From NCBI GenBank assembly GCA_017940575.1, contig JAGAYJ010000008.1, positions 350-64,349 on the forward strand: a stretch of DNA of 64,000 nucleotides. The letters run 5' to 3'. The notes under the pieces are model-generated. The model was not told where the DNA came from and searched no databases. It worked only from the letters and a program-made list of their open reading frames with translations. Both the position numbers and the translations under genes were made by a program. Shown here piece by piece: positions 38-18,157 of this stretch. Origin of the DNA: Bacilli bacterium (GTDB lineage Bacteria > Bacillota_I > Bacilli_A > RF39 > UBA660). Numbering within the stretch: position 1 is the stretch's first letter; each line of letters begins with the position of its first letter.

Positions 38-59
38 TAATGTTTCACGTGAAACATTA
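38..59. promoter_or_regulatory. parS site 1 (16-bp core TGTTTCACGTGAAACA at 41-56; 22-bp perfect palindrome)
   Basis: Read directly: TAATGTTTCACGTGAAACATTA. Exact match to the Firmicute parS consensus TGTTNCACGTGAAACA. Overlaps the stop codon of the 57-350 ORF. Confidence 0.85.
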
Positions 60-350
60 GTTTAATATTTTAATTTTATCATTTGATATTTCATTATTTT
101 TTAACATTAAAGTTATATTTTTAAGCTGATTAAAAACATTACCTAATTTAATATTATTCTCCATAAAATCTTTTGTATAATCTATTCCTAGTTTATTAAA
201 TTGTTTATTTATTAAAACTTTATTCATTTCTTGATAACAATCTTTCAATTCATAAAGATATTTAGCTTTTTTTATAATATTAAAAGGTAAAATACGTTTC
301 CAATCAGGATTAAACTCTGTCATATATTCTTCAAAAGTTTTTTTATCCAT
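57..350 (-). CDS. hypothetical small protein (97 aa from MDKKTF...)
   Basis: ORF track 57..365. I prefer the ATG at 350, preceded by AAAGGGGAAATC (SD). No recognisable family. Bracketed by parS sites. Confidence 0.55.
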   Translation of the reverse strand: MDKKTFEEYMTEFNPDWKRILPFNIIKKAKYLYELKDCYQEMNKVLINKQFNKLGIDYTKDFMENNIKLGNVFNQLKNITLMLKNNEISNDKIKILN

Positions 351-404
351 GATTTCCCCTTTCAATTCTTCTTAATTATACAATAATTAATTATTTAAAA
401 TAAA

Positions 405-426
405 GAATGTTTCACGTGAAACATTC
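405..426. promoter_or_regulatory. parS site 2 (core 408-423; 22-bp palindrome GAATGTTTCACGTGAAACATTC)
   Basis: Exact parS core read directly; intergenic. Confidence 0.85.
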
Positions 427-501
427 GATTTGACATAAAAAGTATATTTACTTTACACTTTTAACAAATTAATTTATTTTTTAGAATTTTTATATATTTT
501 C

Positions 502-527
502 ATCAATGTTTCACGTGAAACATTGAT
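502..527. promoter_or_regulatory. parS site 3 (core 507-522; 26-bp palindrome ATCAATGTTTCACGTGAAACATTGAT)
   Basis: Exact parS core read directly; intergenic. Confidence 0.85.
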
Positions 528-542
528 TAACTTGTTTTTTTA

Positions 543-562
543 TATGTTTCACGTGAAACATA
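543..562. promoter_or_regulatory. parS site 4 (core 545-560; 20-bp palindrome TATGTTTCACGTGAAACATA)
   Basis: Exact parS core read directly; 20 nt downstream of the gyrA stop. Confidence 0.85.
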
Positions 563-581
563 AATTTAAAAAGAGACTTAA

Positions 582-3032
582 TTAAGCCTCTTCTTTATCA
601 GTCTCATTTTCTGATTCTTCATCTTTATTAATTAAAGAAACAGTACCAACTAATTGATCATCTTTTAAATTAATTAATTTAACACCTTGTGCAACACGAC
701 CAGTTGTTGAAATTTGTTCAATTGGTAGTCTAATAATCATACCACTATTAGTTATAATCATTAAGTCTTCATTACCATTAATTACTTTAAATGAAACTAT
801 GTTACCATTTTTTTCAGTTACATTAAGTGCTTTAACACCTTTACTTCCTCTATGAGTTTGACGATATTCTTCAATTGGTGTTTGTTTACCATATCCTTTT
901 TCTGTTACAACTAGCACATTTTGATTATCTTCAGCAATTTCACATCCAACACATGTACCATCTTCAACATTAATACCTTTAACACCACTTGCAGTTCTTC
1001 CTAATACTCTAATTTCATCTTCATTGAATCTAACCATTCTACCTGTAGATGATCCTATTAAAATATTATTATTACCATTAGTCTTTTTAACTGATATTAA
1101 TTTATCATCATCTTTTAGAGTTATAGCAATCTTACCATTTTTTCTAATACTATCAAATTCTTCTATTGCAGTTTTCTTAATCAAACCACTTTGTGTACAG
1201 AATACGATATATTTATTTTCTTCTTCATTTTCAATAGAAAGCATTGCTGTAACGTTTTCATCTTTTTCAATTGGAAGTAAGTTTATAATTGGAAGTCCTT
1301 TTGATTGTCTACTAAATTCAGGAACTTCATAACCCTTAATACGATATACTTTACCCTTATCAGTAAAGAATAAGATATAGTCATGAGTTGTCATTGAAAT
1401 TAAATATTCAACAAAGTCTTCTTCATTTGTAGTCATACCTTTAATTCCTACACCACCACGGTTTTGTGTTTTATAAACATCATGATTCATACGTTTAATA
1501 TAACCGTTTTTAGTAAGTGTTAGAATAATGCTTTCAACAGGAATAAGTGATTCATCTTCAATAAAGTCAATTGCTGTCATATCGATAGATGTTCTTCTCT
1601 CATCACCATATTTGTTTTTAATTTCAAGCATTTCTTCTTTAATAATACCTAAAACTTTTGCTTCACTAGCTAAAATTGATCTTAATTCTTCAATTCTCGC
1701 AAGTAAATCTTTAAGTTCATTTTCAATCTTATCTCTTTCAAGTCCAGTTAATCTTCTTAACTTCATTTCTAGAATTGCATCTGATTGAGCTTCAGTTAAA
1801 CCAAATTTACTCATTAAGCCAGCTTTTGCTTCTTCATCAGTTTTAGCGCCTCTAATTAATTTAATAACTTCATCAATATTATCAAGAGCTATTTTTAAAC
1901 CTTCTAAAATATGAACTCTTTTTTCACATTTATCTAAGTCAAATCTAGTTCTTCTAATAATAACTTCTTTTTGGAAATCAATATATTTAGAAATTATATC
2001 TTTTAAACCAAGTGTTTTTGGAACACCTTGATCTAGCATTAATAATGAAATACCAAATGTTGTTTGAAATTGTGTATGTTTATATAAATTATTTAAAACA
2101 ACTTGTGGATTTGCGTTATTTTTAAGAGTAATTGTAATTTTTACACCATCTTGTTGTAAATCAGTATGATAGTCAGCTATTCCCTCAATTGTTTTATTGT
2201 GAACTAATTCTGCTACCTTATTTTTTAAGTCTGATGTATTAACTCCATATGGAACTTCATCAACAATTATATAATGTTTTCCTTTTTCTTCTTCAATATG
2301 AGCACGTGATCTAATAGTAATTGAACCTTTTCCTGTCTCATATGCTTTTTTAATACCACTATTACCTAAGATTATACCACCTGTTGGAAAATCAGGCCCT
2401 TTAATATATTGCATAAGTCCTAAAGTATCAATATCAGGATTATCAATATATGCAATACATCCATCTATTACTTCACCTAAGTTATGAGGTGGAATATTTG
2501 TTGCCATACCAACAGCAATACCCATAGTACCATTTACTAAGATATTTGGAAATCTTGAAGGTAATACTTTTGGTTCTTTTTCAGTTTCATCAAAGTTTGG
2601 GTCAAAATCAATTGTATCTTTGTTGATATCTCTTAAAAGTTCTAGAGAAATCTTAGAAAGACGTGACTCTGTATAACGCATTGCGGCAGCGCCATCACCA
2701 TCGATGTTACCAAAGTTTCCGTGTCCATCTACAAGTGGTGTTCTATAACTAAATCCTTGAGCCATACGAACCATAGCTTCATATATAGAAGAATCACCAT
2801 GTGGATGGTATTTACCCATAACGTCACCTACTATACGAGCAGATTTACGATGTGGTTTATCAAAATTATAACCTGACTCATACATTGACCATAAAATACG
2901 TCTATGTACAGGTTTAAGTCCATCTCTTAAGTCAGGAAGTGCACGAGATACAATAACACTCATTGAGTAATCTATAAATGATTTTTCAATCTCTGCTACT
3001 ATATCATTTTCTTTCATTTGATCTGTATTCAT
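582..3032 (-). CDS. gyrA: DNA gyrase subunit A
   Basis: 816 aa. Motifs [32 protein letters not shown] (catalytic Tyr) and C-terminal beta-pinwheel repeats. Lies directly downstream of gyrB. Confidence 0.97.
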
Positions 3033-6203: not shown

Positions 6204-6647
6204 TTATTTTCTTCTTTTTCTTACTATTGAATCAAGCATTGTAGATCTATAAATTTGATTTTCTAGTGAACCATATGAAATATCTAAATTAAGCTCATAT
6301 CCATTTTTAAATTTTACTCTAGATGATTTATCATTTTTCATATATTTTTCTATTTGATTTAAGAATATCCAACAACATTTTTCATCTCTTGGAGTAAGTG
6401 TTGGAAATGTTATTATATTTTGTGTCTCTTCTACTAAAATAGGAGTTTTATAAGAAATTCCAAGCATACTTATAGTTCCAATATGTCTTCCCTCATAAGA
6501 TGAACCAAAATATCTACAACTTTTATCCACAATATCAAATGAATTTTGATTAATAAAAAAATCATCATCCTCTTCTATTATGTGACTAACTCTATCTGTT
6601 ATAGGTATGATAGCCATAGTTTTACTGTTAATTTCATAGTTTTCCAT
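6204..6647 (-). CDS. comK: ComK-family competence transcription factor homologue (short, 147 aa)
   Basis: Collinear with B. subtilis ComK from memory: YEIN..TMAIIP, IVDKSCRYFGSSYEGR, KTPILVE...FPTLTPR, ISYGSLENQIYRS. Lacks the C-terminal ~45 aa of the Bacillus protein. Confidence 0.75.
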   Translation of the reverse strand: MENYEINSKTMAIIPITDRVSHIIEEDDDFFINQNSFDIVDKSCRYFGSSYEGRHIGTISMLGISYKTPILVEETQNIITFPTLTPRDEKCCWIFLNQIEKYMKNDKSSRVKFKNGYELNLDISYGSLENQIYRSTMLDSIVRKRRK

Positions 6648-8026: not shown

Positions 8027-9382
8027 CTATACTAACTTGTTAATTATTTTTTCAATCTCATCTTTTAAATCTGGTTGTTTTTTAATTTCTTTTTTAATCT
8101 TATCAACAGAGTGCATAACTGTTGTATGGTCTTTTCCACCAAATTCACTACCAATTTTAGGAAATGACTCTTCAAGATATGTTCTACATATATACATAGC
8201 AACTTGCCTTGGAAAAGCAACAGTAGCTACCCTTCTCTTACTTTTTAAGTCTTCCACAGTAATATTATAGTTTTTAGCAACTAATTGTTGAACTTGCTCT
8301 ACTTTATTTTTAGATACCACAGTATTTACAAAATATCCTTTTAAAGCTTCATTTGCAAGGTCAAGATCAATATCACAACCATTCATCATAGCAGCATATG
8401 CTATAACTCTTGTTATTGCACCTTCTATTTTTCTAACATCACTTGTACAGTTACTTGCAATAAACTCTTGTACATCTTTAGGAAAAGGCGTATTTAACAT
8501 ATGACCTTCTAGTTTTTTTTCTATAATATTTAGTCTTAGTTCAAATTCAGGTGGTTCAATTGGTATTGTAATACCCCAGTTAAACCTAGTTCTTAGTCTA
8601 TCTTCAAGCAATTTTAAATCATCTGGTGATCTATCTGAAGATATAATAATTTGTTTATTTTTATCATATAATTCATTGAAAGTGTTAAAAAATTCTTGTT
8701 GTGTTTTTACACCATTACCAAGATATTGAATATCATCTATTATTAAGATATCCACATCTCTATATTTTTTCTTGAATAAATCCACACTATCAAAGTTATT
8801 TCCGTCTTGATTTCTTTTATTTATGTTGATAAAGTCATCAACAAATTTTTCACTTGTAACATAAAGTACTCTACTTTTATTGTTTTTAAGTGCATAATTA
8901 CCAACAGCATGCATTAAATGTGTCTTACCTAACCCACTATTTCCATAAATAAACAGTGGATTATACATCTGTCCTGGTTTTTCCGCAACAGCAAATGCTG
9001 TAAGTTTAGCAAACTTATTACTATTACCTACTATAAAGTTATCAAATGTATAATTTGGATTTAGGTTTGATTCAAATTGAGATATAGCAGGAACACCTAT
9101 ATTTTCTGTTTTTATATTTATATTTGAATTTTCTATTTCATCTTCAGTTAGATATTCAAATTTAAAGTTAGATCCTGATACTTCTGTAAATATCTCCTCT
9201 ATTATCTCATTATAGTTTTCACTAAGCATTTTTTTATGTACATGCATTGGAACTGATAATGTGACAATATTATCCTTTATTCTAGCTATTTTTGTTTCAG
9301 CAAACCATGTGTCAAATGTTATTGGGGATAATTCACCTTTTATTCTTTCTAAAAAAGAATTCCATAGTTTTGAATTGTCCAT
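8027..9382 (-). CDS. dnaA: chromosomal replication initiator DnaA
   Basis: 451 aa. Motifs YTFDNFIVGNSN, GNSGLGKTHL (Walker A), LIIDDIQ, and C-terminal box-binding helix GGKDHTTVMHS. Confidence 0.97.
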   Translation of the reverse strand: MDNSKLWNSFLERIKGELSPITFDTWFAETKIARIKDNIVTLSVPMHVHKKMLSENYNEIIEEIFTEVSGSNFKFEYLTEDEIENSNINIKTENIGVPAISQFESNLNPNYTFDNFIVGNSNKFAKLTAFAVAEKPGQMYNPLFIYGNSGLGKTHLMHAVGNYALKNNKSRVLYVTSEKFVDDFININKRNQDGNNFDSVDLFKKKYRDVDILIIDDIQYLGNGVKTQQEFFNTFNELYDKNKQIIISSDRSPDDLKLLEDRLRTRFNWGITIPIEPPEFELRLNIIEKKLEGHMLNTPFPKDVQEFIASNCTSDVRKIEGAITRVIAYAAMMNGCDIDLDLANEALKGYFVNTVVSKNKVEQVQQLVAKNYNITVEDLKSKRRVATVAFPRQVAMYICRTYLEESFPKIGSEFGGKDHTTVMHSVDKIKKEIKKQPDLKDEIEKIINKLV

Positions 9383-16428: not shown

Positions 16429-16504
16429 ATTATATTTCCCAAAATTAATTGCATTATTTCCCAAAGTATTGTATTATAATTATAAGAGTAGGAAGAGGGA
16501 TAAT

Positions 16505-18157
16505 ATGGAAGAGGAAAGAAAAGTTGTTACACTAAATATTGATGATATTTTGCCCAATCGTTTTCAACCAAGAATTCAATTTAATGAACAAGCAATAAAT
16601 GAACTTGCTGAATCAATTAAATTACATGGTGTAATACAACCAATTGTTGTAAGAAAAATAAGTGACAAATATGAAATTATAGCTGGTGAGAGAAGATATA
16701 AAGCAAGTATTATGGCAGGTAAAACTACAATTCCTGCAATTGTAACATCATTAGATGACAGAAATAGTGCTGAAGTTGCTTTAATTGAAAATGTACAAAG
16801 ACAAGATTTAACTCCAATAGAAGAAGCTATATCTTATAAAAAAATACTTGATATGGGATATATTAATCAAGAAGAGTTAGGATCTAAATTAGGTAAAAAA
16901 CAATCTACTATTGCCAATAAACTTAGACTTCTTAATCTATCAGATGAAGTACAAGAAGCTTTAATGGAAAATAAAATATCAGAAAGACATGCAAGATCGT
17001 TATTAAAATTAAACGAAAATGATCAATTATTAATGTTAAATAGAATTATAAGTGAAAGATTAACTGTTAGAAAAACAGATGAAGAAATAGCAAAATTACT
17101 AGAAAACAACGGTGGTAGTCAAAAAGAAATAAATGATGAAAAGGGAGAACAAAAAATGAACAATGATATCTTAAGAGATTTTAACATACCTACAGAACCT
17201 ATTATTAACGATACTGTAGAAAATAAAACAGAACCAATGGTTGAACAACCAATACAACCTATTATTGATGATAACAAAGAAGAAATTAATCCAGTTACTA
17301 ATGTTGAAAAAGAAGAAACAATTAATCCTGGATTTATGGATATTGATAAAATTGAACAAATGGCTGAAGATATTAATAAACCTGAAGTTAAAATGCCTAC
17401 AGAAGATTTATTAAAACCAGCAGAACCAGTAGCACCACAACCAAGTTATGATGAAGTAGCTCAACCAACACATGAAGAACCTATACAACAAAGTATGCCT
17501 CAAGGTGGTAAATTCTTTAATATGTTTAATTTTAGTGAACCAGAAAAAGATGAATCATTTATAGAAGATATTGAAGAAGGTCAAGTTAATATGGATTTTG
17601 GTGATAATTTAAATAATCCAAGTCCTTTTAATCCAATAATTGAACCTGTTCAACCAGAACCAATTGTTGAAGATATTAAAGAAGAAAAATCTACAGAACC
17701 TGTAAATGATCCATTTTCATTTGGTGAATCTGTTTCATTTGATAATGAAATTAAACCTGTAGAACCAATATCATATGAGGAAAAAGAAGAAGAATTAGTA
17801 AATCCAACTCCAGCACCTACTGATGTAAACCCATTTAATGAGACTGTTCAACCTTTCTCACTTACTGACGATGGTTTTAGTACAACTAATACTCAACCTC
17901 AAACTAGTTATGAACAACCTGCATTTGAACGTCCATATATGATGAATAGTGATGTTAACTTTGATGAAGAAGGAGAAATAGAAGTAAAACTTCCAAATTA
18001 TAATGAACCAGAAATTAAAGTTGATATGAAAACAGTTATTAATACTATTAGAGAATGTGCAGCTCAAATTGAAAAATATGGTTATAAAGTAGATACTGAT
18101 GAAATTGATTTAGCTGATACATATGAAGTAACATTTAGAATTAATAAAAATGATTAA
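16505..18157 (+). CDS. noc: ParB-family protein, Noc-like, with a ~300-aa acidic low-complexity insertion
   Basis: ORF track 16469..18157. The ATG at 16505 follows SD GGAAGAGGGA. Motifs ILPNRFQPR, IIAGERRYKAS (CTP-binding GERR), QSTIANKLRLLNL and ISERHARSLL match Noc better than Spo0J. C-terminus INTIRE...YEVTFRINK resembles the Noc C-terminal domain. Confidence 0.8.
   Translation: MEEERKVVTLNIDDILPNRFQPRIQFNEQAINELAESIKLHGVIQPIVVRKISDKYEIIAGERRYKASIMAGKTTIPAIVTSLDDRNSAEVALIENVQRQDLTPIEEAISYKKILDMGYINQEELGSKLGKKQSTIANKLRLLNLSDEVQEALMENKISERHARSLLKLNENDQLLMLNRIISERLTVRKTDEEIAKLLENNGGSQKEINDEKGEQKMNNDILRDFNIPTEPIINDTVENKTEPMVEQPIQPIIDDNKEEINPVTNVEKEETINPGFMDIDKIEQMAEDINKPEVKMPTEDLLKPAEPVAPQPSYDEVAQPTHEEPIQQSMPQGGKFFNMFNFSEPEKDESFIEDIEEGQVNMDFGDNLNNPSPFNPIIEPVQPEPIVEDIKEEKSTEPVNDPFSFGESVSFDNEIKPVEPISYEEKEEELVNPTPAPTDVNPFNETVQPFSLTDDGFSTTNTQPQTSYEQPAFERPYMMNSDVNFDEEGEIEVKLPNYNEPEIKVDMKTVINTIRECAAQIEKYGYKVDTDEIDLADTYEVTFRINKND

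Follow-up and report, generated by a model that had tools for sequence, protein, structure and literature searches.

The ParABS field has yet to settle why parS sites cluster (review PMC7333895), and the DNA beside gyrA described here raises it in a compact form: what are several perfect parS palindromes doing in one short spacer, which protein reads them, and how did the symmetric arms that extend past their cores come about? The stretch that we analyzed, referred to below as the window, is 64,000 nucleotides long and covers positions 350 to 64349 of contig C31 in a 1.02-Mb assembly of 40 contigs (25.8% GC, 89% complete); genes were read under table 11. A first-pass annotation of the window had reported four perfect sites with co-varying arms around a small orphan ORF, and had proposed that they form a strong ParB-CTP loading and SMC recruitment hub whose palindromes are themselves under selection.

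RESULTS

Six perfect parS sites lie between gyrA and the SRP RNA gene

The 16-bp core TGTTTCACGTGAAACA is present in the window at positions 41 to 56, 408 to 423, 507 to 522, and 545 to 560, which we number sites 1 to 4; sites 5 and 6 lie further left. Counting from gyrA, site 4 is the nearest, site 3 the second, site 2 the third, and site 1 the fourth. Dinucleotide shuffles of the 64-kb window gave an expectation of 0.01 copies against the 4 found, and a search of the whole window that allowed up to 2 mismatches returned no extra copies. As the first-pass annotation had recognized, sites 1 to 4 match the Firmicute parS consensus, the 16-bp inverted repeat TGTTNCACGTGAAACA, exactly. Their half-sites have G at position 2 and A at position 7, which is the form of parS and not that of the Noc-binding site (NBS). 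All four are intergenic, as first described, and sit in an AT-rich spacer around a 97-aa ORF. No DnaA boxes were found within the array.

One edge of the array is formed by gyrA (positions 582 to 3032, minus strand), which was called from its ORF and translation and by tblastn synteny across 28 loci, and which serves as the conserved left-hand anchor of the array in all relatives. The gene has its own intrinsic terminator, found by a terminator scan as a minus-strand hairpin of 12 pairs with a T5 tail (positions 595 to 568; L003 944 to 917) that overlaps the gyrA stop codon. To the left, a fifth perfect site lies within the 349 bp of contig outside the window (site 5, C31:64-79). The whole array is carried by a 95-kb metagenome contig from the same strain (L047/L052), whose GyrA protein is 100% identical to that of the window. 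The four sites first counted belong to a larger array on this contig, six perfect parS sites in 886 bp running from gyrA to the SRP RNA gene (ffs; RF00169, 58.6 bits), with tadA and then dnaX beyond it. On L052 the sites are at 8969, 9007, 9106, 9473, 9799, and 9839, giving spacings of 38, 99, 367, 326, and 40 bp.

Site 6 is missing from the assembly, having been lost where the contig folds back on itself. Positions 1 to 142 of C31 form a perfect fold-back centered on site 5, and this is an assembly artifact, seeded by a real palindrome. The symmetry is genuine and perfect over 40 bp at site 5 and over 34 bp at site 6, which accounts for the folding back of the contig. The same six perfect sites are present in a second sample (L053) and in the sister species G003, on contigs that run straight through the fold-back point. 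Since parS palindromes break or fold back short-read assemblies in this way, the number of parS sites read from such an assembly is a minimum.

The motif does not recur at similar density along the chromosome. Across the 1.02-Mb assembly there were 5 perfect parS sites, and all 5 were in the gyrA cluster, although at 89% completeness a distant site could be missing; no site with 1 or 2 mismatches was found anywhere in that same assembly.

The array is close to the origin

We placed the origin at dnaA (positions 8027 to 9382, minus strand), our reference point, since the GC skew changes sign at about 8 to 10 kb of the window, where dnaA lies; this puts the sites some 8 to 9 kb from the origin. 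Sites 1 to 4 are 7.5 to 9.3 kb from dnaA, in agreement with the first estimate of about 9 kb, and the array as a whole lies on the dnaA-to-gyrA replichore, at about 9 kb from oriC, in the small genome (about 1.1 Mb) of an uncultured bacterium of Firmicute type (Mollicutes/Erysipelotrichia-like). Reading away from the array, the gene order is gyrA, gyrB, recF, a ComK-family gene, dnaN, and dnaA, followed on the opposite strand by rnpA, yidC, jag, mnmE, mnmG, rsmG, and a ParB-family gene. The ComK-family protein (positions 6204 to 6647, minus strand; PF06338, 1.3e-44) is encoded between dnaN and recF, a slot kept in most relatives. For the corresponding contig of the sister species (L046 of G003), the 24 to 28% GC, the dnaA-dnaN-recF-gyrBA order, ComK, and Noc likewise point to a lineage of this type.

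The parS cores and their address are conserved

Between the strain and G003, the six 16-bp cores are identical at 96 of 96 positions, compared with 453 of 552 (82%) for the other noncoding columns of the spacer, which also contain 51 gap columns (Fisher p=4e-8). By this comparison the parS cores are under strong purifying selection.

When the region downstream of gyrA was compared among related genomes, a parS array was found directly 3' of gyrA in each of the 22 family genomes examined, as well as in six more families of the class. The family arrays contain 2 to 9 perfect sites each, with spacings down to 36 bp, and some relatives have them as strict tandem repeats, the period being 36, 42, or 74 bp. 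Of the 301 genomes sampled from the class, 38 belong to the family, and 23 of these had at least three perfect parS sites; none of the approximately 263 genomes from other families had more than three. Tight multisite parS arrays are the norm in this family and are not peculiar to this genome.

These comparisons also bear on whether the repeats could be nonfunctional, either as an assembly artifact or as a recently spread mobile repeat that resembles parS by chance. Such an explanation could draw on the artifactual fold-back at the contig end and on the frequent position of the array at contig ends in related metagenome-assembled genomes. We regard it as hardly credible: the same six-site array appears in independent assemblies from different samples, the repetition is confined to the cores and does not extend to the flanks, conservation is specific to the cores, synteny holds across the family, and there are zero copies elsewhere in the assembly.

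The Spo0J orthologue is the probable reader of the array

The genome encodes two ParB-family proteins of interest here. On contig C26, a parB gene (C26:5125-6000) lies directly downstream of soj and upstream of ychF, rpsF, and ssb, as in Bacillus. Pfam recognizes ParB_N and HTH_ParB in its product, which also has the CTP-binding motif GERRFRA, an LGRGL motif in its N-terminal part, and GKSR...MAHAR, and whose top PDB match is Spo0J of B. subtilis (6sdk, E=1.9e-66). Genes for SMC, ScpA, and ScpB are also present. The second protein, a 562-aa paralogue with the same two Pfam domains, is encoded in the window at positions 16505 to 18157 (plus strand), and its best NCBIfam and PDB matches are to Noc. 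An acidic, proline-rich, low-complexity stretch of about 300 aa follows its HTH domain, and no obvious N-terminal amphipathic helix was found in it. The soj-spo0J pair is on another contig and not downstream of the Noc-type gene.

Residues that govern ParB and Noc specificity can be mapped relative to the conserved anchors Q162, G170, K171, N178, and R204, and the Noc-type residues Q173, K179, and R201 make NBS rather than parS the preferred site (Jalal et al. 2020, PMC7383237). Placing the specificity positions by the spacing of these anchors, we found R173, which is parS type, together with I179, R184, and A201 in the C26 protein, and the Noc-type set Q173, K179, N184, and R201 in the 562-aa paralogue. 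Because of this difference and the paralogue's matches to Noc, we assign the array to the Spo0J orthologue, which is probably its reader, and the 562-aa protein probably is not.

The alternative is that the array is read mainly, or in addition, by the Noc-like protein encoded beside rsmG. Its gene is the ParB-family gene nearest to the array, about 16 kb away, and relatives have mixed arrays, with Noc sites interspersed among the parS sites. Against this stand the residues of its recognition helix, which are those that turn a parS binder into an NBS binder (PMC7383237), the parS-type R173 of the Spo0J orthologue, and the presence in the strain of candidate targets of the paralogue's own, namely, a perfect NBS well away from the array and a pair of half-NBS repeats upstream of its gene. 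We judge the alternative very unlikely. The half-NBS repeats are two direct copies of TATTTCCCAAA, 22 bp apart, at positions 16433 to 16465 of the window, just upstream of the Noc-type gene, and may serve in its autoregulation.

Most Noc-binding sites checked in the family are inside or near the array

We searched for the NBS palindrome ATTTCCCGGGAAAT. None was found in the assembly with 0 or 1 mismatch, because the rsmI region that holds the strain's NBS is absent from it. The only perfect NBS found in the strain, TATTTCCCGGGAAATA, is at L052:16132-16147, inside rsmI and 6.3 kb beyond the array. Between gyrA and ffs in L052, no NBS was found even with up to 3 mismatches. A single NBS is also present in 7 of 9 genomes of the genus, about 6.2 kb beyond the array wherever contigs allow the distance to be read.

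Across the family, ATTTCCCGGGAAAT occurs only 1 to 6 times per genome, and, among copies whose contigs permit a check, most are inside the parS array or within about 7 kb of it, a clustering with the array that differs from the many scattered sites of B. subtilis. Interleaved parS/NBS arrays occupy the gyrA-ffs spacer in the relatives G008, G014, and G019-G024. In two of these a perfect NBS alternates with the parS variant AGTTTCACGTG(A/G)AACA in strict tandem repeats, with a period of 62 bp at G008:C27:1-300 and of 66 bp at G014:C24:15930-16106. G008 also has a second, divergent dnaX-rsmI copy (C71), which suggests a mixed bin. We found no published description of composite parS/NBS arrays; the literature that we met concerned Noc of B. 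subtilis and S. aureus and ParABS systems in general.

Palindromic arms co-vary around the parS sites sampled and not around the Noc sites

In every one of sites 1 to 4 the dyad symmetry extends past the core. Sites 1 and 2 are 22-bp palindromes with arm extensions of 3 bp (positions 38 to 59 and 405 to 426), site 3 is a 26-bp palindrome with an extension of 5 bp (502 to 527), and site 4 is a 20-bp palindrome with an extension of 2 bp (543 to 562). The pairs at offset 11 are T/A, G/C, and C/G at sites 1, 2, and 3, and an A/A mismatch at site 4. These extents and the three complementary pairs are as first reported, and the pairs were the evidence on which covariation had originally been claimed.

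A larger sample bears the covariation out. We used 76 to 77 nonredundant sites from 30 to 39 loci and permutations that kept the position-specific composition. Arm complementarity at offsets 9 to 15 was 320, against an expectation of 240.5±10.4 (n=77); the excess was found at offsets 10 to 15, with chance level beyond offset 16. Arms of at least 7 bp were present at 15 of 76 sites (0.48 expected), and the distribution of arm lengths was bimodal, with none at 6 bp and a second mode at 7 to 9 bp. At offset 9 the left arm has A and the right arm T in 70 to 71 of the 76 sites; offset 11 is mostly C/G or T/A. The Noc sites of the same loci showed no excess complementarity in a small sample of 28 nonredundant sites (90, against 86.8±5.9 expected), and 2 of the 28 had 10-bp arms.

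Comparison of orthologous sites between strains revealed two compensatory double changes. At offset 13 of site 5, the A/T pair of this strain is replaced by G/C in G003, and at offset 12 of site 3, the second from gyrA, its T/A pair is replaced by A/T in L071. Site 2 keeps its G/C pair at offset 11 in every compared strain that has the site. Between close strains, arm length at orthologous sites nevertheless differs (12 versus 7 bp in one case, and 5 versus 6 versus 4 bp in another), and some changes are uncompensated. Predicted single-strand DNA hairpins ranged from -6.5 to -15.1 kcal/mol, with -7.4 for site 1, -15.1 for site 5, and -11.5 for site 6.

As read from these comparisons, the extended-arm covariation is real at the level of the lineage and specific to parS in our data set. 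We found no earlier description of co-varying arms around parS in the literature. The further claim of the first-pass annotation, that the palindrome is selected for extended protein contacts or cruciform formation, is not established; a mutational origin of the arms, by template switching on a quasi-palindrome, would also be possible, and so would terminator duty for some sites.

Selection at the DNA level could act on the arms in two ways, by favoring a longer symmetric ParB site or by favoring cruciforms that aid ParB nucleation or SMC loading, the latter through extrusion in the supercoiled origin DNA beside the gyrase genes. The near-fixed A/T pair at offset 9 indicates an effective site of at least 18 bp; the preference at offset 11, the excess at parS sites and not at Noc sites of the same arrays, and the hairpin energies of sites 5 and 6 all point the same way. 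Offsets 11 to 15, however, have no fixed sequence, which argues against base-specific contacts, and the variable arm lengths and uncompensated changes at orthologous sites imply weak constraint per position. We know of no ParB that needs a cruciform. On balance this explanation seems unlikely.

Our leading reading is that the arms have a hairpin-templated origin and are reused in part as terminators. They would arise and be renewed by hairpin-templated copying, either through template switching on a quasi-palindrome or through inverted duplication at the birth of a site, and some would then be used as terminator hairpins for the small ORFs and gyrA. Two observations count against it. A generic mutational process should also affect the equally long Noc-site palindromes, and these show no excess (n=28); with the same control, small as it is, we set aside a generic palindrome effect as the cause of the arms. 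In addition, T-rich tails are barely commoner at long-armed sites than at others (40% versus 28%).

Some parS sites have the shape of terminators

The tail counts bear directly on a dual-use explanation, in which these are parS sites whose long-armed members are also selected as RNA hairpins, partly as bidirectional intrinsic terminators. In a genome with few GC-containing hairpins, they would shield gyrA, the small ORFs, and ffs against read-through. Several sites look the part. Site 1 starts directly after the stop codon of the 97-aa ORF, with a T5 run behind it on the minus strand, and in two other strains, which have an intact paralogue of that ORF, a parS site lies 0 to 3 nt after each small-ORF stop. 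Site 5, with its A7 arm, core, and T7 arm, is built like a bidirectional terminator. The first parS site of G004 and of G006 begins 4 to 18 bp after gyrA and has 7- to 8-bp arms and a T run. A simple terminator scan returned 9 terminator-like hits, with 0.1 expected; sites 1 and 5 are terminator shaped for the small ORFs, and sites 2 and 3 were flagged by the scan, site 2 on the minus strand.

Other features do not fit. Here gyrA already has a separate terminator of its own, at many long-armed sites the T tail is absent or the T run is at the wrong end, and the association of tail with arm length is weak across the 77 sites. Terminator duty also leaves the conservation of the exact 16-bp core unexplained. 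We rejected a terminator role for all long arms on the weak T-tail association, and we regard the dual-use explanation as possible but doubtful.

The array encloses a small ORF

The orphan ORF within the array occupies positions 57 to 350 on the minus strand and encodes 97 aa. Its true start is the ATG at position 350, since an upstream TTG extension is out of frame in G003. It had zero Pfam or NCBIfam matches, and a homologue search found only near-identical proteins in very close relatives; between the strain and G003 there were 9 synonymous and 4 nonsynonymous codon differences. An AlphaFold model is a helical hairpin (pLDDT 87), for which a fold search gave no PDB match at E<0.5. G003 and L065 have an intact paralogue with 41 to 43% identity, and a degraded paralogue is present in this strain at about C31:100-325, left of the window. 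The unit of ORF plus parS appears to have been tandemly duplicated. The first-pass annotation had placed the ORF inside a ParB nucleoprotein domain, and on our reading of the array it would lie within the ParB spreading zone.

DISCUSSION

On sequence grounds, the spacer between gyrA and the SRP RNA gene is a genuine parS centromere array, at which ParB would bind and spread and SMC would be loaded. We consider it very probable that the spacer is the chromosomal centromere and acts as a ParB loading hub; for the arms, hairpin-templated copying is our leading reading. The original proposal of a strong ParB-CTP and SMC loading hub stands in the identity of the parS sites, their uniqueness in the genome, their closeness to the origin, the partner genes, and the conservation of the cores and, across the family, of their position; binding and loading themselves we infer from established ParABS biology.

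In this mechanism, dimers of the canonical ParB, the Spo0J orthologue of C26, would nucleate on each core, bind CTP, close into clamps, and slide onto the flanking DNA. The sliding zone would include gyrBA, the 97-aa ORF, ffs, tadA, and dnaX. A single partition complex would form, moved by ParA/Soj and loading SMC-ScpAB, and six loading sites in less than 1 kb would multiply the loading rate at one chromosomal address. In model species a single parS site is enough for loading, and the benefit of having six is therefore our inference.

A different view of the clade is that its parS sites are kept as extrudable palindromes of 30 to 40 bp with a role as DNA or RNA structures, either as cruciform-assisted ParB/SMC loading sites or as a combined centromere and terminator, and that the origin centromere is a two-protein system of ParB and an anchorless Noc. 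Were this so, the Noc site would in this genus have been displaced from the array by 6.3 kb. We give this view little credence and prefer the loading hub with hairpin-templated arms.

The array belongs to a known kind. Clustered, origin-proximal parS sites are cited in reviews for several phyla, including 20 to 23 origin-proximal sites in Streptomyces coelicolor and Listeria innocua (PMC7333895), and chromosomal clusters are described in Caulobacter (PMC5815017) and Corynebacterium glutamicum (PMC7083940). As in these centromeres, several sites near oriC would act together as one loading zone. Here, however, they are much tighter, with 6 sites in 886 bp at spacings of 38 to 367 bp, their address between gyrA and ffs is fixed across the family, and many are perfect palindromes of 30 to 40 bp.

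The likeness to the Spo0J-parS system of B. subtilis is close in its components: the 16-bp consensus TGTTNCACGTGAAACA is identical, the sites are origin proximal, the ParB is a Spo0J orthologue, and the genome also encodes Soj, SMC, ScpA, and ScpB. In B. subtilis the sites are single, mostly intragenic, and spread over the origin-proximal 20% or so of the chromosome, whereas here all of them are in one dedicated noncoding spacer of less than 1 kb, and soj-spo0J is not next to noc and rsmG. The composite parS/NBS arrays of the clade occupy the same slot (gyrA to ffs/tadA), with the same parS core and the same pairing of Spo0J with a Noc-type protein, but in this genome, as in its genus, the array consists almost entirely of parS sites. 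Plasmid and phage centromere arrays bound by ParB or ParR also consist of closely spaced, iterated sites in a short noncoding stretch, and the strict tandem repeats of 36 to 74 bp in some relatives recall them; in contrast to these, the present array has the chromosomal consensus, is located in a conserved core-genome spacer, and has no par operon adjacent to it.

Three features thus stand out as unusual: the confinement of all sites to a single conserved spacer of less than 1 kb, the pairing in this clade of a parS array with Noc sites, of which the only one found for this genome is 6.3 kb away, and the co-varying arms, which surround parS sites and not Noc sites in our data set.

What sets the number of parS sites is also an open question in the field (PMC7333895). 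The family provides a natural series of tight arrays that share one fixed address; they have 2 to 9 perfect sites, some with Noc sites interleaved and some not, and the genomes are about 1 Mb in size. Such a series could guide in vitro work on multisite ParB-CTP loading and clamp collisions, and the restriction of arm covariation to parS points either to a structural role of these palindromes or to a mutational process specific to them.
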